The notes beneath the pieces were generated by a model. That model saw only the letters and a program-made list of their open reading frames with translations. It was not told the DNA's origin and made no database searches. Both the position numbers and the translations under genes were made by a program. A stretch of DNA of 64,000 nucleotides. Origin: an uncultured virus (IMG/VR IMGVR_UViG_3300038428_000082). Its lineage: Duplodnaviria; Heunggongvirae; Uroviricota; Caudoviricetes. The stretch is taken from IMG/VR virus record IMGVR_UViG_3300038428_000082; one strand, given 5' to 3'. Positions 27,073 to 63,971 of this stretch are shown piece by piece; the first letter of the stretch is position 1, and each line of letters opens with the position of its first letter.

Positions 27073-28161
27073 ATGGAACTCGAAAAGACATCGCACAGTG
27101 AACAGTACATGGATTACTCCGGGGGTAAGGAAAATGCCCCCACGCTGACCGTTATGGTCGGCCCGGCTGGCTCAGGAAAGTCCACCCATGCCCGCAGTCT
27201 TGTCAACTGGGCAGCGGGAGCGACCGTCCGGGTAAACCGGGACACCATCCGTGCCATGCTCTACTGTGATTCCCCGTGGAACCACTCGAAGGAAGATGTG
27301 GTCCGCAAGTATGAGGAAGAGGGCATCCGTATGTTCCTCGCCATGGGACTCAACGTCATCGTGGATGACACCAACTGCGTGTCCCGCACCCGGCAAAAGC
27401 TGGAAGAGATTGCCCGTGGCGCTCGGGTAAAGTTCTGCCTGCATGTCATGAACGTGGACAAGGAAGAGTGTAAGCGGCGGAACGCCCTACGCACCGGCAA
27501 AGAATGCGTGCCCGAGGAAGCCATCGACCAACAGTTCAAGCGGCTGCGGGAAACAACCGTCCGCCCGGCTGGCTACGGTCTGGATGAAACCAACCGGGCG
27601 GTAGACGACTGGAACGAGCTTAACGCCGTCATCGCCGGGGGCAGGGACTTTCACGAGCGCCTGCCGGGCGCACCGTGGGTGTTCTGCGACGTGGACGGCA
27701 GCCTTGCCGAGAACGAGGGCGAGCGGAACCAGTTCGACGAGACGAAGGTCCTGCTGGACTCCTGCCGGGAGGGCGTGGCGAAGTGGGTCCGGGGACTGTA
27801 CAGCACCCACAATATCGGAATTCTCAGTGGAAGACACGACTCCTGCTCGACAGACACTTGTTCTTGGCTGAGTTGTTATCGGGTGCCATTCGACCTCCTC
27901 TTGATGCGCCCGGCTACCAACTTTGACCACGATTATATCGTCAAGCGACGGATTATGGAGACGATACTCCGGGTCATTCCGAAGGAACGAATAGCTTTTT
28001 TGATTGATGACAGATGGCAAGTAATCCGTATGTGGAAGGACATGGGGTTCAAGGTTTACCCTGTGGGCGGAACCACGGACCACTCTGCTACTTGCCAGTT
28101 CAAGCCGGAAAAGAAAGGTTGGAGGCATTGCCCCCGATGCGGAGCCTACGAAGATTTTTGA
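27073..28161 (+). CDS. pseT: polynucleotide 5'-kinase/3'-phosphatase (T4 Pnkp-like)
   Basis: GPAGSGKS P-loop, RVNRD and VDDTN kinase motifs; C-terminal HAD DVDG and IDDR. Confidence 0.85.
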   Translation: MELEKTSHSEQYMDYSGGKENAPTLTVMVGPAGSGKSTHARSLVNWAAGATVRVNRDTIRAMLYCDSPWNHSKEDVVRKYEEEGIRMFLAMGLNVIVDDTNCVSRTRQKLEEIARGARVKFCLHVMNVDKEECKRRNALRTGKECVPEEAIDQQFKRLRETTVRPAGYGLDETNRAVDDWNELNAVIAGGRDFHERLPGAPWVFCDVDGSLAENEGERNQFDETKVLLDSCREGVAKWVRGLYSTHNIGILSGRHDSCSTDTCSWLSCYRVPFDLLLMRPATNFDHDYIVKRRIMETILRVIPKERIAFLIDDRWQVIRMWKDMGFKVYPVGGTTDHSATCQFKPEKKGWRHCPRCGAYEDF

Positions 28162-28992: not shown

Positions 28993-29648
28993 GCATCTGT
29001 GGCAAGCCAATGCCGAAAGCGAGGAATGGAGCCGACCGGGGAATCTGCACTAGACCACATAATCATGGTCCCAAAGGTGGTTGTCACGGCAACGGCACTT
29101 GTTTCGGATGCGGTATTAAACTGACATCTTTAACATCTAGTTTTTCTGTTGCTAACCGTGGACAAGGAGAGTGTAAAGTTTGTAAAAAAGAACGGTGCAG
29201 GAAGGACCGTGGTAGCCAACCACTTAATGTCCAGAATCCCGGAGAATTTCACGCTTTTCCGTGTGGGTGCAGTGGAGTTCTCCCTGTAGAAGGTTCAAAC
29301 AAGTTTTCTATGGCAGGAACTCATCGAGGGAAAAGACAATATGTTTGTCGTGTGTCTTTCATTATCAAGGGTTCTAATGACAGAGCAAAAAAGGGGAGAT
29401 ACCAACCCATTTTTCAAGATACCCCTCATACGGTAATTCGTAAATTGATGGAGGAGCCTAACTGCGAATGTTGTGGAGAAACACTGTCATGGAAAGTGTT
29501 AGCACGTGGAAAAACTCCCCACCTTCATCATGACCATAAAACAGGCGAAATCTATGGATTCGCCCACCCAAAATGTAACCCTTTAGCAATGGAGAAAGAA
29601 ATAGAACGACTGAAAGCCTTGCTTAAAGCACAAGAGATGGATTTATGA
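28989..29648 (+). CDS. endonuclease VII-like protein
   Basis: CECC..HLHHDHKTGEIYGFAHPKCN. Confidence 0.65.
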   Translation: MSICGKPMPKARNGADRGICTRPHNHGPKGGCHGNGTCFGCGIKLTSLTSSFSVANRGQGECKVCKKERCRKDRGSQPLNVQNPGEFHAFPCGCSGVLPVEGSNKFSMAGTHRGKRQYVCRVSFIIKGSNDRAKKGRYQPIFQDTPHTVIRKLMEEPNCECCGETLSWKVLARGKTPHLHHDHKTGEIYGFAHPKCNPLAMEKEIERLKALLKAQEMDL

Positions 29649-30898
29649 AGCTTGAAAATCTGCTAAACATTGACGAACTGAACAAGCAAATCAGGGAGGG
29701 TTTTATCAATGAGCGCCGTCACCCCGCACTGCCCCTGCGAATCCTGAATTACTCGAATCGTTGTACTTTCGAGAATCACTGGTCTCTTGAAGCTTGTATC
29801 TGCCGTGGTCTGATTGTGGATGACGCCGGGGTGATTGTATCCAGACCCCCATCAAAATTTTTCAACCTCAACCAAAGAGGACCCCACATTTTCCGCAACA
29901 ATCAGGGGGAGTTGGAAGTTCAAGACGAGACGTTCACCCCAGAGTTCCTCCTCGGGCAGGCGAAGATGTGGAGGTCTCCTATAACCATCACCCGCAAGCT
30001 GGATGGGTGGGCGGGAATCTCGTGGCACTACGAGGGCATCTACGGGGTCGCCAGCCGGGGTTCCTTTGACTCGCCGGGGGCGCAGTATGCCACGGAGAAG
30101 GTGCAGAAGTTCGTCAAGTATAGGGCGTTCGCTGATTTCCTTCCCGAGGATACCACTCTGTTCTTTGAGATTATCTCCAAGATTACCAAGGTGGTTGTCC
30201 CCTACAACTTCGAGGGGCTGGTGCTTATTGCTGCCATTGCCAACGAGACCGGGGAGGAATTGGAATACCCCGAGCTTGAGGCTTTCCACAAGCAGCTAAA
30301 CAGCTATGCCAAGGACCGGGACTGGTGCCGGTTGGTGCCGAAGTTCGACATGTCGGTGGAAGAGTGCATGGCGGACAAGGACATGACGGAGGAGGGCTAT
30401 GTTGCTGCCGTCTACCGGCCTCACTTCCCGCCTGTCCGGGCGAAGGTGAAGCTCGCCGAGTACTGTAGAATCCACAGGATTGTCACGGGAGTCACACCCC
30501 AGAAAATCTGGCAAGAAATGCACAATCCCATGTCTCCCTGGCTTGACCATAACAGCAAGCTGAACCATAATACAGGTGAAGTCCTCTACGATTTGTCTGT
30601 TCCAAGGGACTTTGCCAAATGGGTCAAAGGTTGGCAGATGGGATTGTACAAGGCGTTCCACGATAAGCTTTTGCAAGCCCTGAAAGCACAGAAGGCTTAC
30701 AACGAGTTAGAGCGTGGCATCTACCCTGAGCACCGAAACAGGCTGCACTACTTGCATGGGTGTTTTCCCGTTGATATTGTCAATGCTGCCATCAAGCTAG
30801 AGAACGGCAACATTGTTGGAGCCTATGAGATTTTATGGAAGATGGTTCGTCCCTATGGTCGGGAGGAAACATACTATTTCGATGGCAAGGGAGAATGA
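29645..30898 (+). CDS. RNA ligase (T4 Rnl1-like)
   Basis: CRGLI, KFFN, motif I RKLDG, SRGSF, FFEI, EGYV, KVK. Confidence 0.85.
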   Translation: MKLENLLNIDELNKQIREGFINERRHPALPLRILNYSNRCTFENHWSLEACICRGLIVDDAGVIVSRPPSKFFNLNQRGPHIFRNNQGELEVQDETFTPEFLLGQAKMWRSPITITRKLDGWAGISWHYEGIYGVASRGSFDSPGAQYATEKVQKFVKYRAFADFLPEDTTLFFEIISKITKVVVPYNFEGLVLIAAIANETGEELEYPELEAFHKQLNSYAKDRDWCRLVPKFDMSVEECMADKDMTEEGYVAAVYRPHFPPVRAKVKLAEYCRIHRIVTGVTPQKIWQEMHNPMSPWLDHNSKLNHNTGEVLYDLSVPRDFAKWVKGWQMGLYKAFHDKLLQALKAQKAYNELERGIYPEHRNRLHYLHGCFPVDIVNAAIKLENGNIVGAYEILWKMVRPYGREETYYFDGKGE

Positions 30899-45737: not shown

Positions 45738-46418
45738 ATGAGCAAAGGGTACCGCACGTTCTTTTGTCAAGACAACTACACTCAGTATTTCATCGAAGCG
45801 CCGGGAGAGCCGGAGGCGTGGGAAGCGTTTAGCCAGTCTATTACGCCGGATTGGGAAGTCATCCCCATCATCAATGAGCATGGTGGAATGATAGAGGTGG
45901 GACCGGGGAGAAAATATGAGACCATCTCCAATATCCCTCAAGGCGACCGGAATATTCGTTCACACCTTAGATACCAGCCGCCGACTTATGTTCGATATCA
46001 GGAGGGTGGTGACCTTCATGGCAAGAACGTAGTTACTCTCCCTGAAAAACTGGACCCCACGCTCGCCGAACCCATGCCCACCGCCCCACCCAATGAAGAA
46101 GACGTGGGCCGGTATGTACAGCGGGTGATGACTGAGATGCACCTCAAGCGGGTCGCCGAGGACCATGAGGCTCGTATCGTGTGGGGGGAGAAAAAATACG
46201 GTCAGCGGCTTCGTCCCCATAACGGCAGGGATTGCCTCAAAGACCTTTATCAGGAAGCTCTGGACGGCTGCTCATATGGCGGGCAGGCCGTTCTGGAAGG
46301 TAGGGACGGAGGTTATTTCCTACGTCAGTTCGCCCGCCTCGCCGACGAAATCCGGGATGCCATCTACAAGTATCCCATGAAGGGTCAACATGGCGACAAT
46401 CACCCTTGCGCAAGCTGA
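45738..46418 (+). CDS. hypothetical protein, C-terminus possibly an all-alpha NTP pyrophosphatase
   Basis: GEKKYG..DLYQEALD..Y. Confidence 0.5.
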   Translation: MSKGYRTFFCQDNYTQYFIEAPGEPEAWEAFSQSITPDWEVIPIINEHGGMIEVGPGRKYETISNIPQGDRNIRSHLRYQPPTYVRYQEGGDLHGKNVVTLPEKLDPTLAEPMPTAPPNEEDVGRYVQRVMTEMHLKRVAEDHEARIVWGEKKYGQRLRPHNGRDCLKDLYQEALDGCSYGGQAVLEGRDGGYFLRQFARLADEIRDAIYKYPMKGQHGDNHPCAS

Positions 46419-46573
46419 GTTCATTCTCGGAGACTTGGGTCCCGCCAAGCGGCACCTTGTCCGGCTATTGCAGGACCCCAAGGATTGGGCTAATCCCAGC
46501 ACCTATCGGGAAATCCAGCAATCTATCCAGCGTATGGAGGCTAGTCTGTTGAAACACGTTCTGGAGATAAAAG

Positions 46574-47038
46574 ATGAGTAACAGTGCCCAGCAGATGTTC
46601 ATCGACAAGATTATGGAGATAGACAGGACCGGACGTGTCCTCACAACAAAGGAAAATACAGACCTCTTCTTCGAGATGGTCAAGTTGGCTTGCAATCCGG
46701 GGTGCCTGGTTATTCACGGGCATGAGTTCTGCATCAGAGAGAAGAGCAACGCCACGCAAGAGGATTGGCGCAAGGAAGAAGACGAGATGAACGCTCGTGA
46801 ATCTTTGGAGTCCATCGTGGATGAGAAAGACCATCCGTTCATGAAAGAAGCCAAGTTGGACACATGGCAGAAACGATTGATGTATTTCCTCAAGCCCGTC
46901 GCCCGGCATTTCAAGGTTGACGACGAATCCCTTCTACAAAGATACATGCGTCATAATCTCCCCACTCATGCCATGGAAGCGGGATTGAGTCCCCTTCCGT
47001 TCATTCAGATGGGGGAAGGAAAGGATAAAAATGGGTAA
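46574..47038 (+). CDS. hypothetical protein
   Basis: Coupled ORF. Confidence 0.55.
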   Translation: MSNSAQQMFIDKIMEIDRTGRVLTTKENTDLFFEMVKLACNPGCLVIHGHEFCIREKSNATQEDWRKEEDEMNARESLESIVDEKDHPFMKEAKLDTWQKRLMYFLKPVARHFKVDDESLLQRYMRHNLPTHAMEAGLSPLPFIQMGEGKDKNG

Positions 47039-47645
47039 CCAAGACGATTCCCTGCAAGTTTACGAGAACAGCAAACATTTGGGGTTTACCGACCAGTGCC
47101 CCGATTGTAAAGGGGAGGGGGAAGTCCCTCTCACCGATGAGGAGCGCTGCGGTTGTGAGCAGCCTTGCTCCTGCTACAATTACAAGACCTGTGAGTGCTG
47201 CGGCGGGGATGGGAAGGTTGAAGCCACTCTCCCCGGTAGAGCGGGACAAGCCGCTGCCCGGCAAGCGGAGCTTTTAGACCGCCCTCCTCAGATGTTAGTT
47301 GGTACTGACGGGAGAGGTAAGGAACCATTCATCGTAAATGGCCGCTTATCCGAAATTCAGAGCGTTGTTTACAAAAACGTAATTGGAACTTCCATACCGG
47401 TCATTATCCGCCCGGCACCGCCCATTTCCCGCTGGCTACAACGGAGGGAGAAGTTCTTCAAGGCTCTGGATTGGTTGAAGCTCAAGTGGTTCAACTTCAA
47501 GCTGTGTTTCCACCCGCAATGGGTTGATGACCCTCTCTATGACTTAATGAATGAGGATAGCATCATTCCTCCGGGAGAGCGGGAGCCGCTGTATGAGTTG
47601 GCACAAGAGGTGGTGGATGCTCCCGGTGGTGACCCCACGGAATGA
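47031..47645 (+). CDS. hypothetical protein with DnaJ-like CxxCxGxG motifs
   Basis: CPDCKGEG and CECCGGDG. Confidence 0.55.
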   Translation: MGNQDDSLQVYENSKHLGFTDQCPDCKGEGEVPLTDEERCGCEQPCSCYNYKTCECCGGDGKVEATLPGRAGQAAARQAELLDRPPQMLVGTDGRGKEPFIVNGRLSEIQSVVYKNVIGTSIPVIIRPAPPISRWLQRREKFFKALDWLKLKWFNFKLCFHPQWVDDPLYDLMNEDSIIPPGEREPLYELAQEVVDAPGGDPTE

Positions 47646-47684
47646 AAATCCGAACTATTGGATTAATTAGTGGGGGATACGGTA

Positions 47685-48422
47685 ATGAACAACGGAAAAT
47701 ACCATCGTGAGGATTTAACTGGACAACAATTTGGGTGGTGGACGGTGGGGGAACGTCAACCCGTAGGTTCAAGTCACTCGGGAGTAGTTTATAAATGCAG
47801 GTGCAAATGTGGCACTGAAAAGCTGGTGTCCGCTAGTGTCCTCCATCAAGGGGTATCTACAAGCTGCGGATGCAGGCGAAAGCAGCGTATGGATTTGACT
47901 AGTAAACGTTTCGGAAAATTAGTTGTGGTAGAAAGAACCAAGGCACCCCCACATTATAAAAGCAAAAATGCACAATATTGGTTATGCCGATGTGATTGTG
48001 GAAACACCTTGATTGCTACAACAGGGAATCTCAATTTTTATCCCCGTAGTCAATCAGGGGGGTGTAAGGCTTGTTCACCAAGACGAAACAAATATAGGTT
48101 GGAAAAACATAAGTCTACCCCGGAATTCAGGCTGTGGGAAAAAGCTAAGAGCCGTGCCAAAAAGCGGGGGATTTTATTCAACATTTCTCCAGATGACATC
48201 ATCATTCCAGAGGTTTGCCCCCTCTTGGATATAAAACTTACCCATAAAAAACATGGTTGGGATGGAAATACTCCCTCGTTAGATAGGAAAAACCCCTCAT
48301 CCGGGTATGTTAAAAGTAATGTTTGGGTGGTGAGTTTTAGAGCTAACTTGTTAAAAAATAACGCCAGCCGGAAAGAGCTTGAAAGGCTTATAGAAAGGAT
48401 GAAAGCCCATGGAATCGACTGA
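47685..48422 (+). CDS. HNH-like endonuclease with Cys-rich repeats
   Basis: DLTGQQFG..CRCKCG..SCGC; SLDRKNPSSGYVKSNVWV. Confidence 0.8.
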   Translation: MNNGKYHREDLTGQQFGWWTVGERQPVGSSHSGVVYKCRCKCGTEKLVSASVLHQGVSTSCGCRRKQRMDLTSKRFGKLVVVERTKAPPHYKSKNAQYWLCRCDCGNTLIATTGNLNFYPRSQSGGCKACSPRRNKYRLEKHKSTPEFRLWEKAKSRAKKRGILFNISPDDIIIPEVCPLLDIKLTHKKHGWDGNTPSLDRKNPSSGYVKSNVWVVSFRANLLKNNASRKELERLIERMKAHGID

Positions 48423-49380
48423 AATTTATGACCGAGTAGCGGTAAGTTTTTCAGAGAAGGTTAATGAGGTATTTGAGTCTGAACAAACCCTCAAGGATTG
48501 GTTTTTAAAACACTTTTCTAACCTTACCTTTGACCGAACAAATAACTGGGGTGGTCTTATTTACCTGCTTTTTAGAGATTCTTGGCTGGAGGCCGGGCCA
48601 GAAGTTAAGGCGGAGCCGACCGGCTATGACCGGAGTGTAGTTCTCAAGAAGCTCACAACCCTGCTGGACTACAACCTCTTCACACAGGTGATGCTCAACC
48701 TGCAATCGTATGTTGGCATGGCATACCAAGCTTTGAGCGCCGAACAGGACCTCAAGACCATGGAAGAGTGGTGGAAGAACAACAAGCGTAGCCCCTTCAT
48801 GCCGGGGTCGAAAATGGTGAAGCTTTCCGCCAACATGACGACGGAGGATGAGAAGTTCAATCAGGACCTCAGCACCATCCGGTCATTGAAAATCATCGCC
48901 AACTTTACCCCCAACCTTTCATGGCGGGTCAGCCCCAAGGGCAGCACCCCGGCGCTGGTGGACAGCAATAATGTCAGCAGCCTTGGTATCGGGGCGGACA
49001 GGTATCTTAAGGTGATGCCCGGCCTGCGGGCCTCTTATGTCTTTTGGGGGCCGGGGAGCGGGCCGACCATGGCAACTATTCCCCCGGCGTCTTCTGACCA
49101 CATCACTTTCCAAGCGGAAGGTATTCCCTATGTGTTCCGTTCCAAGTCGGGCGGAGAAATCCTCAATCAAGTTCTGTTCTCCCGCCGTATGGCCTACAAC
49201 ATTTTCTGTGCTCACGATGTGGCAAACGAGACGTGCATCATCGTCCCGAGAATGAGTTCCATCCTCGTGGTGCATGACGACAACAGTTACAACTTACGCC
49301 ATGCTATCGAGCCTTATTTGGATGGTGGTGTGATTCAGTTGGCAGAGGGGTCAAGAAGTGACCCCGCTTCAAAGGAGTAG
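48409..49380 (+). CDS. hypothetical protein
   Basis: 323-aa ORF. Confidence 0.65.
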   Translation: MESTEIYDRVAVSFSEKVNEVFESEQTLKDWFLKHFSNLTFDRTNNWGGLIYLLFRDSWLEAGPEVKAEPTGYDRSVVLKKLTTLLDYNLFTQVMLNLQSYVGMAYQALSAEQDLKTMEEWWKNNKRSPFMPGSKMVKLSANMTTEDEKFNQDLSTIRSLKIIANFTPNLSWRVSPKGSTPALVDSNNVSSLGIGADRYLKVMPGLRASYVFWGPGSGPTMATIPPASSDHITFQAEGIPYVFRSKSGGEILNQVLFSRRMAYNIFCAHDVANETCIIVPRMSSILVVHDDNSYNLRHAIEPYLDGGVIQLAEGSRSDPASKE

Positions 49381-56096: not shown

Positions 56097-56171
56097 TGGA
56101 AGGGGAACCGGGAGTCCAACCCGGATTGCCCGTTTAGAAGACGGGTGCCTTTTGCGTTAGACGATTCCCCC
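56097..56171 (-). tRNA. tRNA-Arg(TCT)
   Basis: CCCGT-CTTCTAA-ACGGG; CCA end; variant T loop TTGGACT. Confidence 0.8.
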
Positions 56172-56178
56172 GTAAATT

Positions 56179-56268
56179 TGGTACCCCCGGCAGGACTCGA
56201 ACCTGCGATGCCTTTCGGCATAGACAGTTTAGGAAACTGTTGCGATGTCCATCTCCGCTCACGGGGGC
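56179..56268 (-). tRNA. tRNA with CCT (Arg) anticodon and long variable arm
   Basis: ACAGT-TTCCTAA-ACTGT; extra arm ATGCC-GAAA-GGCAT; ACCA end. Confidence 0.8.
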
Positions 56269-56278
56269 GTAAACTTGT

Positions 56279-57076
56279 TTATTTCCTTCCTAGCCTCCAA
56301 CCATCACAGAGGCGGTTAATAACTTCGGATGCCGCAATTTTGATTGCTACGCCATCTTTACATAACCAGCGCACAGGTGGTCTTTTTCTATTAGCTTCCC
56401 TCAAGGCTGCTATTACATGCACCGGTCGTGGTTTCCCACGCTTTGCCTTGGCTATTTTTTCACCAAAGCCTTCTGGCATTTTTTTGCCTTTATTCCAAGC
56501 CGAGGTTCTTCCTTTTAATGCTTCCCGCATTTTTTGCTTACTGGTATCGGAGTGTTTCCAGCCAGACTTGTGGGGAGCTTGTGGTTTTCCAGCTCTTCTC
56601 CTGTTTGATTCTGCAACAGCCTTTCTAGTGCTTTCTGGGACTGAGTGTCCCCTTTGGGAGGCACTCATCCTTTGTCTAGTCTGCTCTGAACAATGCTTAC
56701 CAAACATTGGATTTCTTTCGCCTTTGTTCGCCTCTTTGAATTTTTGACGAGTAGCCTCATTCGCAACTACCCCTCCGCCTCCAAGAGTTGAGTTGTATCC
56801 ATATTCAGGGTCGCACGCCTTAAACTTTTCAATATAGGAGACCTCAAGGGTATCCAATTCTTCTTTGGAGAAGGCAACATTTATACGATAGGCTTTGAAG
56901 CTACCTTCTCCATATTTTCGGATGGCATTATAGAAGTATGCACAATTTGTCCCACCCGCTTTGGCTCTCCTACAATGAGCCAGCCATCGCTCGTGCAGGG
57001 TTCTTATGGTTTGCCCGATATATACCTTGTTGTTGACTTGGTTTACGATAATGTATACTTCCCCATATGGCTCCAC
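56279..57076 (-). CDS. GIY-YIG endonuclease with NUMOD3 repeats (Seg-like)
   Basis: VYIIVN..YIGQT; GYNST; MFGKHCSEQTRQRMS. Confidence 0.85.
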   Translation of the reverse strand: MEPYGEVYIIVNQVNNKVYIGQTIRTLHERWLAHCRRAKAGGTNCAYFYNAIRKYGEGSFKAYRINVAFSKEELDTLEVSYIEKFKACDPEYGYNSTLGGGGVVANEATRQKFKEANKGERNPMFGKHCSEQTRQRMSASQRGHSVPESTRKAVAESNRRRAGKPQAPHKSGWKHSDTSKQKMREALKGRTSAWNKGKKMPEGFGEKIAKAKRGKPRPVHVIAALREANRKRPPVRWLCKDGVAIKIAASEVINRLCDGWRLGRK

Positions 57077-57109
57077 TTAAACTCTCCTTCAATGAATGGG
57101 GTAAGTAGT

Positions 57110-57661
57110 TCATTTATCAAGTACAACATTCCAGTATAGGTACGGTGCGTAATCTTTCCACTCGTTCCTTATCTTGCTGATATGCAGCTTGAAGTTGAAG
57201 CGGGGGTCCGTGGGCTTCGGCGTATAGGGCTTGCTGAGCAAGGTCATGCCCGCCTGCGCCGGGGTACGTCCGGCCTTTTCCTTGTTGCACGGCATACAGG
57301 CGATGGCAAGGTTGTCCCAGTCGGACTTGCCCTTCTGGCAAAGCGGGATGACGTGGTCAATCGTGTATTCCGAGGTGTGGACCACCTTGCCGCAGTACTG
57401 GCATGTTGCATTGTCACGCACTAACAGGTTGCGCCGGGTGCAGGGGACGGACTGCTTCTTACGGCGATGCCAAGCGTTGCGAACGACTATCACCCTTGGC
57501 ATGCCCATTTCAAAGGACGGTGAGTGCAGGACCTTCCCGCCCTCGTCCTCCTTGACAATCTTGGCACGGTCCTCGAACCAGAGCTTGACGGCGTTCTGCC
57601 AGCCCATGAAGCCCACGGGTATCCAGTTCATGTCTAGTACAAGTACGTCAGCGTATCCCAT
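57110..57661 (-). CDS. McrA-like HNH endonuclease
   Basis: VLVLD..RDNATCQYCG..TIDHVIP..WDNLAIAC..CN.EKAGRTP; AAGGAGG RBS. Confidence 0.85.
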   Translation of the reverse strand: MGYADVLVLDMNWIPVGFMGWQNAVKLWFEDRAKIVKEDEGGKVLHSPSFEMGMPRVIVVRNAWHRRKKQSVPCTRRNLLVRDNATCQYCGKVVHTSEYTIDHVIPLCQKGKSDWDNLAIACMPCNKEKAGRTPAQAGMTLLSKPYTPKPTDPRFNFKLHISKIRNEWKDYAPYLYWNVVLDK

Positions 57662-57679
57662 AGAGCCTCCTTATCTAAG

Positions 57680-58245
57680 ATTCGGAAAACCGTTAATCCT
57701 CGCTCGTTGCCACACCGAATGTGATCGATGGCTAATTGCCGGTAAGCCTGCGCACGACCCCTATAGCCGTCCATCGCTCTTCGCACTCCGGTATCCGCCC
57801 ATAGGACTAGGCGGCGAGTCAAGCTTTTAGGGTTTGGGCGGGGTGTAACCGGTCTTCTCTCAGGTTCATATCCATCGAATTGGCCGGTCTCATTGCCGTA
57901 CACCATACGGGTTGATGTGGTCGGGTTTCTTATGGTGTCTCACCCCGAGGCCCACTGCGTTGTCCTAACGCTCTCACCCCGCCCGAACAGCGCCCCTGTG
58001 ACCACGCCCTTAAGACATCGCCCCCGGTTATGTCAACTCACCAGAGACTTAGGTCGGTCAGGAGCACCAACTTAAACCCAACGGCGTGCAGCCAGCGTAC
58101 TGGCGGTTTGGCTTCGCTTTCTACGGGGTTAATGACCGGTCCCCCTCGTCGCCCGGAAGCCGCTTGTGCAGGCACGGTATCCCGATTTCTGCCACGACAA
58201 CCGTTCCCATCAGTCTTGCCGACCCTACGGGACCTTGCACGCCAT
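57680..58245 (-). ncRNA. large structured non-coding RNA (unidentified)
   Basis: No credible ORF; helices GGCGTGCA/TGCACGCC and GGGCGGGGTG/CACCCCGCCC plus many hairpins; GTGGTATTAC promoter motif at 58251-58260. Confidence 0.6.
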
Positions 58246-58284
58246 TCTTGGTAATACCACAGAGATTGAGAAACAAACGAATAA

Positions 58285-58629
58285 TTAAATTTCAGGATGG
58301 TGCTCCTTCCTGTGACAGTTAGAGCATAGTATTTCGCATTTTCTTATCTCAGCAAGGATTCGTTTCTTTCCCCAACCTTGGTTCACAGCTTGCCTTATTG
58401 ACATGTCTTTTTTGCTTGAATCTCTATGATGAAAATCTAAACATGCAGGATGATTTTCCGGGCAACGAGCACATTTTAGAGAGCGTTTGAACTCCTTGAA
58501 CCAATCTCTAATTTCTTTCCTTTGGTTCTTTGCTCGGATAAGATATGGCTCTTTGTGATTTTGATAATGTTTTCTCCTGTATGCTTTCATTTCTTCTTGA
58601 TGAGATGTTTTCCAAGCTTCTGTCGCCAT
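58285..58629 (-). CDS. HNH-like endonuclease
   Basis: CARC..LDFHH..KCEILCSNCHRKEH. Confidence 0.8.
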   Translation of the reverse strand: MATEAWKTSHQEEMKAYRRKHYQNHKEPYLIRAKNQRKEIRDWFKEFKRSLKCARCPENHPACLDFHHRDSSKKDMSIRQAVNQGWGKKRILAEIRKCEILCSNCHRKEHHPEI

Positions 58630-58704
58630 ACAATCCTCCAATATATGAGTTGCATAGCGTAGATTTGGAGACTCTATCTGCACCAAAAATTTACATTAGA
58701 ATCT

Positions 58705-58794
58705 TGGCAGGGGTGGAGGGATTTGAACCCCCAGTATCCCGAAGGAAGACGGTTTTGGAGACCGCTGGGCCGAACCAGATTGCCCGTCACCCCT
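58705..58794 (-). tRNA. tRNA-Trp(CCA) with long variable arm
   Basis: GCGGT-CTCCAAA-ACCGT; extra arm TCC-TTCG-GGA; GCCA end. Confidence 0.8.
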
Positions 58795-58802
58795 AAACTC
58801 AC

Positions 58803-59117
58803 GCCGGTGTCTTATCCAAATAAACGAAGGTCAAGACCAAGAGTACCATGGTTATCTTGGTCACAGCTACCATGAGGCTACGCTGTACCATGTCCTACGG
58901 GGACTCGAACCCCGTTTTTCCGGCTGCATCATGGGAGACGCTCTACCATTGAGCTACGCCCCGCATGGCGGGGCGACGGGACTCGAACCCGCAACCTTCT
59001 CCCTGAATCAATCCCCGGTATCCTACCATTGAATGACGGGTCGCTGGGGGCGTTCTGCCTGACGGGAAGGCTACTCCATGCGATTATCCGGTGGGACTCG
59101 AACCCACATTTTCCGGG
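58803..59117 (-). ncRNA. three tandem circularly permuted tRNA-like units
   Basis: Each unit reads anticodon-stem 3' strand, T arm (TTCGAGT), acceptor, D arm, anticodon-stem 5' strand. Confidence 0.75.
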
Positions 59118-59123
59118 CTAGCT

Positions 59124-59198
59124 TGGCTCCGAGGGGAGGACTCGAACCTCTCATTAACCGGGTCAGAGCCGGTTCTCCTACCGTTAGAGGACTCTGGA
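59124..59198 (-). tRNA. tRNA-Gln(CTG)
   Basis: ACCGG-CTCTGAC-CCGGT; slightly irregular acceptor; GCCA end. Confidence 0.8.
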
Positions 59199-59261
59199 AT
59201 ATCTTGCTATTTACGTCAACTTTTAGCCCCAGAGGGGTAAACTTGACGTATAAATCAATCT

Positions 59262-59340
59262 TGGTCGGCGTGGGGAGATTTGAACTCCCGACCCCTCCGC
59301 CCCGAACGGAGTGCTCTAAACCGGGCTGAGCTACACACCG
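59262..59340 (-). tRNA. tRNA-Pro(CGG)
   Basis: CTCCG-TTCGGGG-CGGAG; ACCA end. Confidence 0.9.
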
Positions 59341-59350
59341 AAAATTTAAA

Positions 59351-59941
59351 TCAGACGACCCCGGAATAATCTTTGCTTTTATTTCCCGGAACCCAATCCG
59401 CAAATAACCCAAGCTCCCTAACTTTTCGCATTGTATCAGCGATTAGTAACCACGCTTTGTAGGGCATATTTCCTCGAACAATGTTACATCTTGTGCAACA
59501 GGGAATTACGTTACTTTTCAAATGACCCCGCATGTTATCTAATCGGTCCAACCCAATGCGTAGTTCTCTTTGGGTTACTCCACAGTATCGGCAGCCAGTG
59601 GATATAAGAGCAGCTACGTAGTTCCGGTCAAGGTCGCAGGCAAACCCATGGCGTTTATCCCAACTCTTGCAGTCGTTTGTAACATGCCTTGCTTCGCCTT
59701 TATACCTTTGGGTGCTTAGAGTCTGTTTCCTTCGCTCGTAAACCCCCTCGGTCATTCCATGTCGAGGTTTCCAACGTTTGTTATGCTTATTAAAGCAAAT
59801 ACGGCATAGAAATCGGTAATACTTATTCCCATTAGACCAACGTGTTGGGAAGTTCTTACCGTCCTCAGTTAATGCCTTCCCACATTTTTTGCAGATGTGT
59901 GGAAGTCTTACATTCACTCCACCAACTTCTTGACTCTTCAT
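59351..59941 (-). CDS. HNH-like endonuclease
   Basis: CRYCG..GLDRLDN..GH..NVIPCCTRCN. Confidence 0.8.
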   Translation of the reverse strand: MKSQEVGGVNVRLPHICKKCGKALTEDGKNFPTRWSNGNKYYRFLCRICFNKHNKRWKPRHGMTEGVYERRKQTLSTQRYKGEARHVTNDCKSWDKRHGFACDLDRNYVAALISTGCRYCGVTQRELRIGLDRLDNMRGHLKSNVIPCCTRCNIVRGNMPYKAWLLIADTMRKVRELGLFADWVPGNKSKDYSGVV

Positions 59942-59985
59942 ACTAATAGATACTGAAGTCAGAAGATTGGTCGGAGTGATATTTT

Positions 59986-60060
59986 TGGTCGGGGCGAGAG
60001 GATTTGAACCTCCAACGACTTGCTCCCAAAGCAAGTGGGTTACCGTTACCCTACGCCCCG
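59986..60060 (-). tRNA. tRNA-Pro(TGG)
   Basis: CTTGC-TTTGGGA-GCAAG; ACCA end. Confidence 0.9.
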
Positions 60061-60097
60061 GCACAAGTTAGGCCGTTCAGCTACAGCCCGTAAACTT

Positions 60098-60172
60098 TGG
60101 TCAGGTCCGGCAGAGTCGAACTGCCAATCACTAGTCCCCCAGACTAGGGCATTACCATTATGCTAGGACCTG
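60098..60172 (-). tRNA. tRNA-Pro(GGG)
   Basis: CTAGT-CTGGGGG-ACTAG; ACCA end. Confidence 0.88.
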
Positions 60173-60328
60173 ATAATGGAGGTTTGGCAGTACTCCCCCA
60201 GCTAATCAGAGCCAGTACTCGTCAACCTCCAAACGGTGACGGACAATGGGAGGTTTTCACCTCTCGGGCCTCAGCCCACATACTCAAACCGGTTAGCCTT
60301 GCCAGTCCAGTATGCTTCCGCCATAACT

Positions 60329-60403
60329 TGGTAGCTCGCACAGGAATCGAACCTGTGACATCCGCCTTATGAGAGCGGCGTTCTGCCACTGAACTAGCGA
60401 GCC
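60329..60403 (-). tRNA. tRNA-CAT (elongator Met or Ile2)
   Basis: CCGCT-CTCATAA-GGCGG; paired 1:72; ACCA end. Confidence 0.88.
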
Positions 60404-60520
60404 AGAACGTACGTGGTGTTTGGGAGCCATGATGGTTGCGCTGCGCCACACCATGAGTATGTTACCCGACAATTACGCCGCCCAAACAATGGCCTTTTAA
60501 GGGGCACTCACGTACGGCTT

Positions 60521-60595
60521 GAGTTGCATGGGTGGAATCGAACCACCGACCTCCCGGTACCCCGGTCGCTCTTCCGCTGAGCTACAAGACAACCC
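60521..60595 (-). ncRNA. anticodon-less tRNA-like element
   Basis: Normal D and T arms, but the anticodon arm is CCGG-GGTA-CCGG (4-nt loop); elongated acceptor; no CCA. Confidence 0.65.
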
Positions 60596-60600
60596 TAAGA

Positions 60601-60677
60601 TGGTAGCGGGGATGGGAATTGAACCCACCTTTACAGAGCTTATGAGACTCCGAAACTCACCAGAGTTATACCCCGCA
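60601..60677 (-). tRNA. tRNA-Met(CAT), initiator-like
   Basis: TGCGGGG 5' end with 1:72 mismatch; CTCATAA loop; ACCA end. Confidence 0.82.
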
Positions 60678-60730
60678 TCAAACCATACGCTACACCGCAT
60701 ATCTGTTGCTAATACGCTGTAGCGTATCAA

Positions 60731-60806
60731 GGTTGCGGAGGCTGGATTTGAACCAGCGGCCTGTTGGTTATGAGCCAACCGAGCTACCTGACTGCTCTAC
60801 TCCGCT
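60731..60806 (-). tRNA. tRNA-Met(CAT), initiator-like
   Basis: AGCGGAG-TAGAGCAG..GGTAGCTC; A1:A72 mismatch; GTTGG-CTCATAA-CCAAC; ends ACCT. Confidence 0.85.
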
Positions 60807-60812
60807 ATAACT

Positions 60813-60889
60813 TGGTGCCTCCCCAGAGAGTCGAACTCTGTTCTCCCGCTCTTCAGGCGGGCGCTATGCACCGCATCAGCTAAAGAGGC
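60813..60889 (-). tRNA. tRNA-Phe(GAA)
   Basis: CCCGC-CTGAAGA-GCGGG; ACCA end. Confidence 0.88.
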
Positions 60890-60964
60890 AAAACCAAACT
60901 TTCAAACTTCTCGGCATTATCTTGAGAGCACCTTAAGTCCTATAATACGCTCTCAAGAGCATCT

Positions 60965-61040
60965 TGGTGGGTCGGGAGGGAATCGAACCCTCAACCTTGG
61001 GCTTAAGAGGCCCCTGCTCTGCCAGTTAAGCTACCGACCC
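60965..61040 (-). tRNA. tRNA-Lys(CTT)
   Basis: GGGC-CTCTTAA-GCCC; ACCA end. Confidence 0.9.
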
Positions 61041-61045
61041 AAATT

Positions 61046-61122
61046 TGGTACCGCCGAGAGGACTCGAACCTCCAACTCCTCGGGCAAGAGCCGAGTACTC
61101 TGTCCAGTTGAGTTACGGCGGC
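61046..61122 (-). tRNA. tRNA with CTT (Lys) anticodon on an Arg-like body
   Basis: CTCGG-CTCTTGC-CCGAG; D loop AACTGGACA; ACCA end. Confidence 0.8.
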
Positions 61123-61128
61123 ACATCT

Positions 61129-61208
61129 TGGTGGAGCCGGTGGATTGGGTGCCCACGACCGTCCGCTTAAAAGGCGGCTACGCTTAACCACATCTGCGTC
61201 ACGACTCC
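61129..61208 (-). tRNA. tRNA-Lys(TTT) with aberrant T loop
   Basis: CCGC-CTTTTAA-GCGG; T arm GTGG-GCACCCAAT-CCAC; ACCA end. Confidence 0.7.
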
Positions 61209-61214
61209 ATATTT

Positions 61215-61289
61215 TGGCTCTGGAGGAGGGAATCGAACCCCCAACCATTCGGTTAACAGCCGAACGCTCTACCGTTGAGCTACTCCAGA
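61215..61289 (-). tRNA. tRNA-Asn(GTT)
   Basis: TTCGG-CTGTTAA-CCGAA; GCCA end. Confidence 0.9.
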
Positions 61290-61454
61290 AGAAACTGTCT
61301 CCTTCTCAGGCGGATATATAGACGAGTTGTTATGACACATCGTCCCTGAGTGCTCGCCTGAACCATACAACGGCTGGTGCTGTTTGCCCTCACAACCTGC
61401 CAACCAAGGGCGACCCTCATCACACCAGCGACACTCGCTCATACGACCTCAAAC

Positions 61455-61528
61455 TGGCTGGGACGGCAGGACTCGAACCTGCATTCTCCGGGTAACAGCC
61501 GGGCATCTTACCATTGGATGACATCCCA
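61455..61528 (-). tRNA. tRNA-Asn(GTT), Gln-like body
   Basis: CCGG-CTGTTAC-CCGG; TGGGATG 5' end; GCCA end. Confidence 0.82.
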
Positions 61529-61675
61529 ACAAACAGTGACCAGTGACAACCGCCCTCCGCAGGGGCGGGAAGTGCATAGCTGGGGACCTCGCCTGTTCCG
61601 AAGAACTGGTGCCCTGCTTACCACCGAACCCATCAGACTCGCCATCCCTTTGGGTGCGTCACGTGGTCTCAATCT

Positions 61676-61755
61676 TGGAAGCCCCGAGGGGATTTGAACC
61701 CACTGACCTTCGGTTTCGTAGACCGCTGCTCTAGTCCGGGCTGAGCTACGGGGCC
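61676..61755 (-). tRNA. tRNA-Arg(ACG)
   Basis: CGGT-CTACGAA-ACCG; TCCA end. Confidence 0.88.
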
Positions 61756-62162
61756 TCAATCTTGTACCAACCTCTTTCTTTCGCTGTTTTACGACGGTGA
61801 CAGTTGGCGCATCGCACGTCGCACTTAACTATCTCAGCCTTTATCGTCTTTAATGATGCCTTCATTTGTGTCATTAAAGTTGAAACGGCTGCTAATTTCT
61901 TTTCTCCTTCCCGATGGTCAAACTCAAGGACTATCGGGTCAGATTCTCCACAGTCGATACAGGGGTGAGTCATCAAATACTGTAAGACCCACTCTATGGC
62001 TTCTTTCCTATACCTTGCACCATTCCGTTTCGCTTTTTCAACATACGAGGTCTTATTCCTCTCGTAGTTTTGCTTATTGTAGCCTCGCTGGCATTCGAGG
62101 CAGTATGGTGCTGACCGGTGCTCTTTTTCCTTACCACATTTGTAACAGTTCTTAGACCTCAT
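61746..62162 (-). CDS. HNH-like endonuclease whose stop codon lies inside tRNA-Arg(ACG)
   Basis: CIDCG..LEFDH..KCDVRCANCHR. Confidence 0.8.
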   Translation of the reverse strand: MRSKNCYKCGKEKEHRSAPYCLECQRGYNKQNYERNKTSYVEKAKRNGARYRKEAIEWVLQYLMTHPCIDCGESDPIVLEFDHREGEKKLAAVSTLMTQMKASLKTIKAEIVKCDVRCANCHRRKTAKERGWYKIEAP

Positions 62163-62201
62163 ACTAAAGGACTACGAAGTCCAATTACTGTTTTCAAATC
62201 T

Positions 62202-62277
62202 TGGAACCCCTGACAGGATTCGGACCTGCGACCATCCGGGTCGAAACCGGGCGCTCTGTCCACTGAGCTACAGGGGC
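62202..62277 (-). tRNA. tRNA-Arg(TCG)
   Basis: CCGG-TTTCGAC-CCGG; TCCA end. Confidence 0.85.
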
Positions 62278-62283
62278 CTAATC

Positions 62284-62361
62284 TGGAAGTCCCGGTCGGA
62301 TTTTAACCGACGACCTTCTCCTTCGGAGGGAGTTGCTCTATACGGGCTGAGCTACGGGACC
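62284..62361 (-). tRNA. tRNA-Arg(CCG)
   Basis: CTCC-CTCCGAA-GGAG; TCCA end. Confidence 0.82.
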
Positions 62362-62367
62362 ATATAT

Positions 62368-62439
62368 TGGGGTGAATGACGAAGTGGGCTGCCCCCGCCC
62401 CCTCGGACCAGACCGAGTACCCTGTGGGGTTCACTCACC
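62368..62439 (-). ncRNA. His-like tRNA mimic with degenerate loops
   Basis: GGTGAGTG/CATTCACC-CCA acceptor as in tRNA-His; 6-nt loop TCTGGT; no TTC loop. Confidence 0.6.
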
Positions 62440-62444
62440 AAACT

Positions 62445-62519
62445 TGGGGTGACTGAGGGGAATCGAACCCCCGTATCCTGATTCACAGTCAGGCACTCTG
62501 CCACTGAGTTACAGTCACC
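62445..62519 (-). tRNA. tRNA-His(GTG)
   Basis: G-1:C73; CCTGA-CTGTGAA-TCAGG; CCA end. Confidence 0.9.
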
Positions 62520-62574
62520 ATAAACGCAAAAAACCCACCCAAAAACCCATCTTATGACTTCCACTGTCTTTAAT

Positions 62575-62931
62575 ATGGGACAGTGGATTCATAGAATGCT
62601 TTTTGTTAACAAAGAAACTAAAACCGGGCTTTGTGCCGCCTGTGGAGATGTTAAAGTGCGACTCAAAGGTGGTAAGTATCTTTGCCGTAACTCACAAGCC
62701 CGTTGGACTGGAAGGTGTAACTACCCCTCTCATCCATACCGAGATAAGTCAAACCCCCCGAGAGTCTGCGATGAATGCGGCTTTGTTGCTAAATGCTCGT
62801 GCCAGATTGACATCCATCACATTGATGACAACCACGCTAACAATCAGCCAGAGAACCTCCGTCCTCTATGCGTATGTTGTCACCGACTCATTCACTGCAA
62901 GTGCAAAATAAAAAAGCCCACAGAACCTTGA
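62575..62931 (+). CDS. HNH endonuclease, antisense to the tRNA operon
   Basis: CDECG..IDIHHIDDNHANNQPENLRPLCVCCH. Confidence 0.8.
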   Translation: MGQWIHRMLFVNKETKTGLCAACGDVKVRLKGGKYLCRNSQARWTGRCNYPSHPYRDKSNPPRVCDECGFVAKCSCQIDIHHIDDNHANNQPENLRPLCVCCHRLIHCKCKIKKPTEP

Positions 62932-62942
62932 GTTCGGTGGGC
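62905..62942 (-). terminator. attenuator terminator of the tRNA operon
   Basis: GCCCAC-C-GAAC-TCAAG-GTTC-T-GTGGGC-TTTTTTATTTT. Confidence 0.85.
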
Positions 62943-62968
62943 ATCCTTGCACTCTGTTCGCTTTTTCG

Positions 62969-63064
62969 CTATGCGACTCCTGCGAACGGAAGCCCACCGA
63001 AGCTTGGGCGGCTAAAATGCCGCTTAGGCTGCCACTGCATCGGGTTTGGTTTCCTATTTCGCAT
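62969..63064 (-). CDS. leader peptide MRNRKPNPMQWQPKRHFSRPSFGGLPFAGVA
   Basis: GGAGA RBS; codons match the downstream tRNA set; overlaps the antiterminator TTCGGTGGGC (62992-63001). Confidence 0.8.
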   Translation of the reverse strand: MRNRKPNPMQWQPKRHFSRPSFGGLPFAGVA

Positions 63065-63077
63065 GTCTCTCCAAAAC

Positions 63078-63145
63078 TGGTGCCCCTTTCGGGGCGTAAA
63101 ATGGTAGGGGCTTTCGCCCCCTCAAACTGGTGGGCCTTTCGGCCC
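63078..63145 (-). repeat. three GAAA-tetraloop hairpins, each followed by ACCA
   Basis: GGGCC-GAAA-GGCCC-ACCA; GGGGGC-GAAA-GCCCCT-ACCA; GCCCC-GAAA-GGGGC-ACCA. Confidence 0.85.
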
Positions 63146-63248
63146 GGAATCTTGTGAGGCTGACCGGGTAACAATATCGTCCGGCTCCCCGCCTCAATTT
63201 TACCCCTACAAGTATAGGGTCGGTAGTTCGTTTTCTTCCTTCACTTAC

Positions 63249-63258
63249 ATAATACCAC
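63249..63258 (-). promoter_or_regulatory. putative promoter of the tRNA operon
   Basis: CGTGGTATTATGTAAGTG matches the GTGGTATACTGTAAGTG motif seen at 3156. Confidence 0.65.
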
Positions 63259-63509
63259 GGTTTTGGGAGAATATGGGGATTTTTTTAATCGGCCATTTAT
63301 TTACTGTGAACCTAACTTTAGTTCCCGATAACTTGTCTGATTTCCATTGGTTAGCCGTTCAGCCCGTATATCCCCGGTATTACCTCAAGGGCTGTCCAAA
63401 TACTTCCCACCGGTCAACAAACCCGTCACTTCCTTTGTAACCCCGGATAAGCCGATTGGAGTTAATGACCGGATTAGAGTAAAGCGGCATCGTGGGAACC
63501 ATAATGTAT

Positions 63510-63971
63510 TCAGGTTCCCTCCCATGAAATTTCCAACCAAGTATGATACATGTTGTAGGGTGTCTCGGAGCCGCATTCGCCGCCGCTGTTCAAATAAGCG
63601 GCACTGTCATCATGCTCCACCCACCCTTCTTTGACCGTGACTTTGTAGCCGTCTCGGCGTAGCTTGGTGATGATTTTCTTTAGCTCGGCAGCGAACTCAA
63701 AATTCTTGAAAAACTTCTGTTCCCCGGCAAGCGGGCGGTCAGTCCAATTCTCCGTGGATAGCCGGTAGTCTTCAATTTTTGTTATGCCGTCTTTTATACG
63801 GGCGTCAATACGCCATTGAATGTCTTCGAGAGTTTTGGCGTAGTACTCTTTCCGCTTTTTCTCTTCCGCAGCCGCCCGCTGAACCTTGCGCTTGGCGGAC
63901 TCCTCCACTTTCTCCCGAGCAATACGTTCAGCGTTGGTCTCAGCGAGCGCCCTTGCTTCCGCTGCCCTCAT
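63510..63971 (-). CDS. hypothetical protein
   Basis: GAGG RBS; charged helical N-terminus. Confidence 0.6.
   Translation of the reverse strand: MRAAEARALAETNAERIAREKVEESAKRKVQRAAAEEKKRKEYYAKTLEDIQWRIDARIKDGITKIEDYRLSTENWTDRPLAGEQKFFKNFEFAAELKKIITKLRRDGYKVTVKEGWVEHDDSAAYLNSGGECGSETPYNMYHTWLEISWEGT

Follow-up and report, generated by a model that had tools for sequence, protein, structure and literature searches.

Three tandem hairpins, each tailed by ACCA, lie in the leader of a tRNA gene array within the 64,000-nucleotide stretch of uncultured phage DNA analysed here (the window). The hairpins are real and are maintained by selection, and they look like mimics of the tRNA acceptor end that, judging from their sequence, RNase P and 3′ trimming could process. 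The leader that carries them appears, in the folds predicted for it, to be a leader-peptide attenuator gating a His/Arg/Asn/Lys/Phe/Met/Pro/Gln/Trp tRNA array. We favour, at a probability of roughly 40%, the reading that tRNA-maturation enzymes cut and trim the three units, whereby the 5′ UTR would become shorter and CCA-ended microhelices would be set free. What makes the arrangement of interest is that conserved, triplicate microhelices are wired to a switch that appears to gauge the supply of exactly those tRNAs that are encoded downstream.

The tRNA genes of the window are on the minus strand, and the trio is thus to be read on that strand, as follows.

63128..63145, minus strand: hairpin 1 with ACCA; stem 63145-63132 GGGCC-GAAA-GGCCC, ACCA 63131-63128, spacer GTTTGAG 63127-63121.
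63102..63121, minus strand: hairpin 2 with ACCA; (G)GGGGC-GAAA-GCCCC(T), ACCA 63105-63102, spacer TTTTAC 63101-63096.
63078..63095, minus strand: hairpin 3 with ACCA; stem 63095-63082 GCCCC-GAAA-GGGGC, ACCA 63081-63078, then GTTTTGG.

Across 63145-63078 (minus strand) there are three evenly spaced units of 25–26 nt each, and each unit consists of a 5–6 bp G+C stem with a loop-closing C-G pair, a GAAA loop, the ACCA and a U-rich spacer of 6–7 nt. Hairpin 2 has 5 bp when taken as 63120-63107 and 6 bp, including a G.U pair, when taken as 63121-63106, and its stem abuts the ACCA only if this sixth pair is counted. The GTTTTGG that follows hairpin 3 continues into a Shine-Dalgarno sequence. An earlier note on this DNA had described three GC stems with GAAA loops, ACCA and U-rich spacers, and this description is borne out, with coordinates that fit exactly and the strand now fixed as minus. 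Hairpins of at least 5 bp with a GNRA loop are common in the 140,398-bp phage genome (53 on the plus and 50 on the minus strand), and those tailed by ACCA are the trio only. Taken singly, the hairpins have folding energies of −10.0 to −11.6 kcal/mol; within the full leader fold, every pair of the trio has a probability of at least 0.99, and the 336-nt leader region folds with a z of −5.5 relative to shuffles. The trio folds independently of the attenuator switch that lies downstream of it.

The trio occurs with identical sequence in three IMG/VR contigs. In two relatives, G001 (237 kb) and G002 (317 kb), the leader is 94% identical to that of the window, and the adjoining 160-amino-acid protein, for which no PHROG or Pfam family was found, is only 85% identical to its counterparts there. 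Hairpin 1 of both relatives is GGCCC-GCAA-GGGCC followed by ACCA, which amounts to one G-C to C-G swap with the GNRA loop retained, and hairpin 2 is unchanged. In an alignment of four rows, made up of the three copies of the window and the relatives' variant of hairpin 1, pairing holds in 20 of 20 cells and three of the five pairs are altered on both sides, a covariation score that was reached by 5 of 500 shuffles; the invariant pairs are the first G:C and the loop-closing C:G. The claim of the earlier note that the stems vary while pairing, loop and ACCA are kept thus stands, in that the changes among the copies are compensatory and the loop of the relatives, GCAA, is still of the GNRA class. 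The ACCA, on whose conservation in homologues that note had staked its reading, is kept in the sole diverged homologues, and since these are merely 4–6% diverged, its conservation carries little weight. Furthermore, a single unit was probably duplicated to give the three copies, and the shared ACCA tails therefore do not represent three independent events.

Two other explanations of the repeated arms are ruled out. A 102-amino-acid ORF is listed over the trio, and the G after the ACCA of hairpin 3 is missing in the relatives; the loss of this one base frameshifts the ORF, so the trio is not coding. A DNA-level operator or iteron is excluded because the arms differ among the copies while the pairing persists. 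Scans for more distant homologues of the trio, by pattern and by protein seed in IMG/VR, in metagenomes and in genomes, gave none among the matches listed: all true matches belong to this lineage and fall into two sequence types, that of the window and that of G001/G002. The loosest IMG/VR pattern matched at least 117 stretches, and among the matches listed five loci had a trio after filtering; chance matches made up two of seven stretches in one IMG/VR scan, four of eight in the metagenome scan and two of two in the genome scan. Among cultured phages there is no DNA match to the stretch, near or distant. Rfam has no match at E ≤ 1 in 62519-63500 and, at gathering score, nothing besides tRNAs in the whole genome.

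The genes with which the hairpins are best compared are those of the array itself.

56097..62518, minus strand: tRNA array B, with His, Arg (six), Asn (two), Lys (three), Phe, Met (three), Pro (three), Gln and Trp.

The gene count of array B is 19 by ARAGORN plus Lys-UUU by Rfam; this tRNA-Lys(UUU) (61132-61208, minus strand) has an unusual T-loop, was missed by ARAGORN and scores 35.8 bits in Rfam. An encoded CCA followed by a spacer of 6–9 nt, first A or G and then T-rich, is present in 18 of the 19 ARAGORN tRNAs of array B and in all eight of the second array of the genome. The tails of the hairpins follow the same pattern: GTTTGAG is identical to the trailer of tRNA-Asn, and TTTTAC is similar to the AATTTAC that follows tRNA-Arg(CCU). 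When a position matrix built from 26 tRNA trailers was scored against 5,470 genomic CCA sites, the three tails ranked in the top 7.4%, 8.2% and 2.3%. In all three hairpins, as well as in the relatives' variant of hairpin 1, a purine discriminator, A, and the CCA directly follow the helix. At the other end, the G at +1 pairs with the last base of the stem (G1:C14) invariantly in four of four rows, and its 5′ flank is the preceding single-stranded spacer. The claim of an acceptor-stem look-alike is hence upheld by the G at +1, the G+C stem, the GNRA cap, the A followed by CCA and the tRNA-pattern spacers. Two free CCA-ended mini-hairpins with tRNA-type trailers are also found in array B of G002 (110932-110952 and 114664-114680, plus strand), the stems being 6 and 5 bp long, the loops 5 and 3 nt and the spacers of the AGTTT type, and one of them ends 8 nt before tRNA-Pro; the arrays of the window itself have no free CCA-ended mini-hairpin beyond the trio. 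The 5′ arms match the first five bases of Arg-tRNA acceptor stems, and we do not build on this match, which is weak because G+C five-mers that begin with G number only 16 in all.

The hairpins occupy 'tRNA slots', and from this we infer that the tRNA-maturation enzymes of the host handle them as they do tRNAs. Anchored via the RCCA contact, RNase P would cut 5′ of each G+1, and 3′ trimming enzymes would halt at the CCA. The long 5′ UTR would thereby be trimmed to give a leader mRNA with a hairpin-protected 5′ end, and CCA-ended species of about 18–20 nt would be released. If the units are processed in this way, phages use the tRNA-maturation machinery of the host to shape transcripts that are not tRNAs. 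There are precedents in which partial tRNA mimics within transcripts serve as entry points for tRNA-processing nucleases, namely the t-elements of plant mitochondria and mitochondrial tRNA punctuation. These mimic the acceptor and T-arm and are without an encoded CCA, whereas the phage trio consists of bare, tetraloop-capped microhelices with an encoded ACCA, in triplicate.

Efficient substrates of RNase P use a T-loop contact, and a 5-bp helix without it speaks against processing. Some model substrates of the enzyme reportedly carry a GAAA cap. Bacterial RNase P cleaves hairpin substrates with a 3′ RCCA, even those with 3-bp helices, at rates near those of pre-tRNA, and anchors its substrates by the 3′ RCCA contact (PMC3299987, PMC11221534). 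The model substrates described there (pATSerUG and 3-bp minihelices; PMC3299987, PMC11221534) resemble the trio in having a short helix, a 5′ leader, a 3′ purine-CCA that pairs with the P15 loop and a G at +1; they are laboratory constructs, on the other hand, while the trio comprises natural tandem copies in an mRNA leader that have no T-loop and whose −1 base is C, A or G, and its cleavage is a prediction. Three further points count against processing. First of all, array tRNAs commonly have U at −1 (T/U in 12 of 19), where the hairpins have C, A (or G) and C, although U is a preference of the enzyme and not a requirement. Second, a search of the whole genome at the Rfam gathering score shows no encoded RNase P RNA. 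Third, one cut mark would suffice, so that three in tandem are not explained by cutting alone.

The leader in which the trio is embedded has the following elements, together with an inserted gene.

63249..63296, minus strand: leader promoter, with an A-tract/UP-like element ATGGCCG..TAAAAAAA and an extended −10 TGGTATTAT at 63257-63249.
63220-63202 and 63195-63156, minus strand: two 5′-UTR stem-loops upstream of the trio, in the MFE and centroid folds.
63072-63067 and 63064-62969, minus strand: Shine-Dalgarno GGAGAG and leader ORF MRNRKPNPMQWQPKRHFSRPSFGGLPFAGVA, 31 codons plus stop.
63032..63049, minus strand: segment 1, codons 6-11, which pairs with segment 2 without a ribosome (full-length fold).
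62992..63001, minus strand: segment 2, codons 22-25 TTCGGTGGGC, the antiterminator strand, a 10-bp perfect complement of the terminator 5′ arm.
62905..62942, minus strand: intrinsic terminator, GCCCACCGAAC 62942-62932, loop, GTTCTGTGGGC 62926-62916, then TTTTTTATTTT; −15.5 kcal/mol.
62554..62931, plus strand: HNH homing-endonuclease gene between the terminator and tRNA-His, with PHROG HNH matches; absent in the relatives.

The A-tract and the extended −10 element are also found upstream of a Tyr/Leu/Ser leader in the same genome, an identical extended −10 lies upstream of leaders A, B and C in G002, and the promoter is conserved in the alignment with the relatives. Given this recurrent promoter element, the transcript probably starts near 63242, which would place the trio at about +98 to +165. 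Of the two stem-loops that precede the trio, the first (63220-63202) is preserved in a relative by a U.G to C-G change, and the second (63195-63156) has ACA and a tRNA-type spacer, AGATTCC, directly downstream. Downstream, 5 nt separate the ACCA of hairpin 3 from the Shine-Dalgarno GGAGAG, and the ATG follows. Over the first 28 codons of the leader ORF, the relative differs at four bases, and all four changes are synonymous and at third positions. Residues 1-17 of the leader peptide, MRNRKPNPMQWQPKRHF, consist only of the nine amino acids of array B; among all 280,792 residues of the six frames of the genome, this 17-residue run is the longest of its kind, followed by a low-complexity run of 16 in an apparently non-coding frame. 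All 17 of these codons have a cognate anticodon in the array, counting the Lys-UUU gene missed by ARAGORN, and the leader samples four different Arg codons and three different Pro codons.

In the full-length fold, the 1:2 pairing (codons 6-11 with 22-25) and the 3:4 terminator are formed, and once segment 4 (the 3′ arm of the terminator) is omitted, pairing of segment 2 with the 5′ arm of the terminator becomes the MFE. G002 retains 8 bp of the antiterminator despite its differing terminator sequence, and the terminator of the relatives has the same design with another sequence, ending 8 nt upstream of tRNA-His. The earlier note had thus rightly placed the trio in a tRNA operon leader, upstream of an attenuator, and a promoter, a leader ORF and an antiterminator/terminator pair are now identified. 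By its design, what lies downstream of the trio is a genuine leader-peptide attenuator; its small leader ORF is not mentioned in that note. That the trio would be transcribed even when the array is off is also correct, in that the hairpins lie between promoter and terminator: they would be made whenever the promoter fires, and the tRNAs only on read-through. Two long-range contacts of the hairpins were considered and rejected. A 7-nt match between hairpin 1 and a terminator arm, by which the ACCA tails might pair with attenuator segments, is not kept in the relatives, and for a GAAA tetraloop-receptor fold a CCUAAG half-site is present and the partner strand is absent (by eye).

The trp and his leaders and the multivalent ilv and thr leaders are classical leader-peptide attenuators with short 5′ UTRs. 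The phage leader is like these amino-acid operon attenuators in having a Shine-Dalgarno sequence, a short ORF in which the regulated codons are enriched, 1:2, 2:3 and 3:4 pairings and a terminator just upstream of the regulated genes, a likeness that concerns the context of the trio and not the hairpins themselves. It differs in that the genes under control encode tRNAs and the peptide draws on nine amino acids, and in that classical leaders are without acceptor-end mimics. The attenuator would thus extend ribosome-sensed control of the trp/his type to tRNA genes, and it provides a directly testable model of when large phages make their own tRNAs. A full-text literature search gave no published account of codon-matched attenuators of phage tRNA arrays, and a literature search likewise gave none of CCA-ended mini-hairpins or of natural genes for bare acceptor-stem microhelices. 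To our knowledge, acceptor-stem microhelices have until now been laboratory tools for the study of RNase P, aminoacyl-tRNA synthetases and EF-Tu.

Leaders of this kind recur in the lineage. The second array of the genome (Tyr, four Leu and three Ser) is preceded by a leader peptide, MKNLSSNSLSYSSSLLLSGLVLPDGWDG, and a terminator. The 60 tRNAs of G002 are grouped by amino acid into four arrays, and leaders A, B and C of this relative draw 18 of 29, 22 of 28 and 17 of 32 residues from their own arrays; comparison of the three leaders with the three arrays in a 3 × 3 chi-square gives p = 2.7e-9. Array D of G002 (Ile/Thr/Gln) has no leader ORF and is adjoined by a protein gene. Leader C has five Thr/Ile codons, which are amino acids of the leaderless array D. 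Codon-matched leaders head three of the four tRNA arrays of the lineage, at 62969-63064 (minus strand) with 62905-62942 in the window, at L152:852-990, and near 80577, 108040 and 258400 in G002. The leaders of arrays A and C have the same promoter type and are without any hairpin trio, so the attenuation switch does not require the hairpins. The attenuator accounts for the terminator without the trio, and with leaders A and C lacking it, the trio is an add-on to leader B.

This add-on character bears on an alternative that we regard as possible, though short of probable: the hairpins may be structural furniture, stable C(GNRA)G hairpins that guard the 5′ UTR from RNases, exclude Rho or insulate the folding of the attenuator, with ACCA tails inherited from a tRNA-spacer module. 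The three sister leaders all have long (about 125–215 nt), hairpin-rich 5′ UTRs of unrelated sequence, and the UTR of leader A contains a hairpin-less remnant, CACC-GTTTGAG, which suggests modules that decay. The independence of the trio from the switch, both in folding and in that the switch works on paper without it, is also as expected of structural elements. Such a role, however, leaves unexplained why the A-CCA abuts the stem in three of three copies, why the G+1:C pair is invariant and why the spacers score like tRNA trailers. Moreover, the stems diverged by compensatory change while the loop class and the ACCA stayed, which points to constraint on the tails too.

Repeated RNA-protein sites usually look like three units at 25–26 nt with variable stems and a fixed loop class and tail. 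The trio might accordingly comprise tandem sites for a phage or host protein that binds the GNRA hairpin and the single-stranded ACCA(G/U)UUU at 25-nt spacing and modulates initiation at the leader ORF or read-through, and the end of the last ACCA 5 nt before the Shine-Dalgarno would suit such a function. We nevertheless consider it unlikely. The lambda nut site consists of boxA and a pentaloop boxB bound by N. It shares with the trio a 5-bp G+C stem, a GNRA-type loop and a position between promoter and terminator; the trio is unlike it in having tetraloops, no boxA, no recognised N-like protein, three ACCA-tailed copies and a ribosome-dependent antiterminator. In 63260-62895 there are no matches to four core boxA motifs, and the best site, with 7 of 13 positions, lies in the T-run of the terminator. 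A Pfam search of 167 ORFs gave no N-like or other RNA-binding regulator, a search that small basic proteins, which are poorly modelled, would escape. The basic composition of the leader peptide is explained by the amino-acid set of the array, and the peptide is proline-rich. Finally, the terminator already has a ribosome-dependent antiterminator. The suggestion in the earlier note of boxB-like antitermination hairpins is therefore not supported: the search gave no boxA-like motif, the loops are tetraloops, and the leader ORF itself contains an antiterminator.

G+C hairpins with 3–4 U within 5 nt could also act as leaky intrinsic terminators, or hold up RNA polymerase ahead of the leader ORF as hairpin-dependent pause sites, and we hold this to be very improbable. 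A terminator scan lists no site at 63078-63145. The U-tract of an intrinsic terminator starts 0–2 nt after the stem, and here the ACCA intervenes between the stem and a short U run. A pause at the hairpins could not synchronise a ribosome, since they come ahead of the Shine-Dalgarno sequence. In addition, one RNA-library contig passes through all three hairpins. This contig comes from the one metatranscriptome run that matched part of the stretch (share of words 0.10). It is 1,353 nt long, of the relative's sequence type and at a depth of 21.7, and it covers 63196-62985 and 62539-62400, with the HNH insert absent and 56 other letters in its place. It spans the trio, the leader ORF, the terminator region and tRNA-His; DNA carry-over is possible, and the contig cannot show a single transcript or its ends. 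It begins at 63196 with nothing matched on 63220-63600, a gap that is no evidence for a transcript start.

A further proposal accepts the release of CCA-ended microhelices that processing by tRNA-maturation enzymes would bring about and assigns them a role in trans, as decoys or sponges for tRNA 3′-end enzymes, supplied constitutively while real tRNAs are made on demand. Each transcript would yield three copies even if attenuated, and having three in tandem would make sense as a matter of dosage. The phage is richly equipped for tRNA defence and repair (an Rnl1-type RNA ligase, a polynucleotide kinase-phosphatase, RlaP, and 28 tRNAs with tRNA-shortage sensors), and its array holds further anticodon-less tRNA look-alikes. 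Against this, a 5-bp helix offers less of the tRNA body than many acceptor-end enzymes require, the host has no known target enzyme, and the RlaP neighbourhood is not kept in the relatives, with an insertion of about 4.8 kb at that place. A role in trans is in our view quite doubtful, and so is its extension, in which the leader is a gene for three sacrificial CCA-ended microhelices plus a tRNA-shortage-sensing peptide, together a two-tier counter-measure against tRNA-directed defence; we treat that extension as a long shot. If the microhelices do act in trans, they would be a new kind of RNA counter-defence.

The RNA-repair set is encoded at 27073-28161 and 29645-30898 (plus strand) and at genome 75413-76435 and 59620-62052, and comprises the polynucleotide kinase-phosphatase, the T4 Rnl1-type RNA ligase, the RlaP nucleotidyltransferase and an 810-amino-acid protein with major-vault-protein shoulder and repeat domains. 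The RlaP gene is two genes upstream of the leader, and relatives of RlaP in cultured phages are all below 30% identity.

Several tRNA-like elements occur within the array. Between tRNA-His and tRNA-Arg lies an 83-nt cloverleaf-like element (62362-62444, minus strand) with a 9-bp acceptor-like stem, a 6-nt 'anticodon' loop and an encoded CCA; it has no ARAGORN or Rfam call and a fold z of −1.8. At 60524-60591 (minus strand) there is a tRNA-like gene (Rfam tRNA, 32.8 bits) in which a 4-base loop replaces the anticodon loop and no CCA follows; it could be a tRNA mimic that does not decode, or else the remains of a gene. At 58917-59015 (minus strand), a Y-RNA-like (YrlA) match scores 41.9 bits, where the gathering score is 69; the surrounding 131-nt stretch has a fold z of −3.6 and tRNA-like arms, and no Ro/TROVE protein was found among the ORFs scanned.

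Mobile elements have also entered these regions. The HNH gene reaches, with its last codons and stop, across the terminator loop and 3′ arm, which lie on the opposite strand, and past the HNH insert (62519-62931) a remnant of the T-run still adjoins tRNA-His. In the other leader, at L152:652-855, the stop of an HNH ORF overlaps the start of the leader ORF (ATGA). Further GIY-YIG/NUMOD3 and HNH genes interrupt the tRNA array, and elsewhere in the genome, at 46216-48702 (minus strand; L151:8216-10702), a ClpB-like AAA protein is split by an intein with a LAGLIDADG domain.
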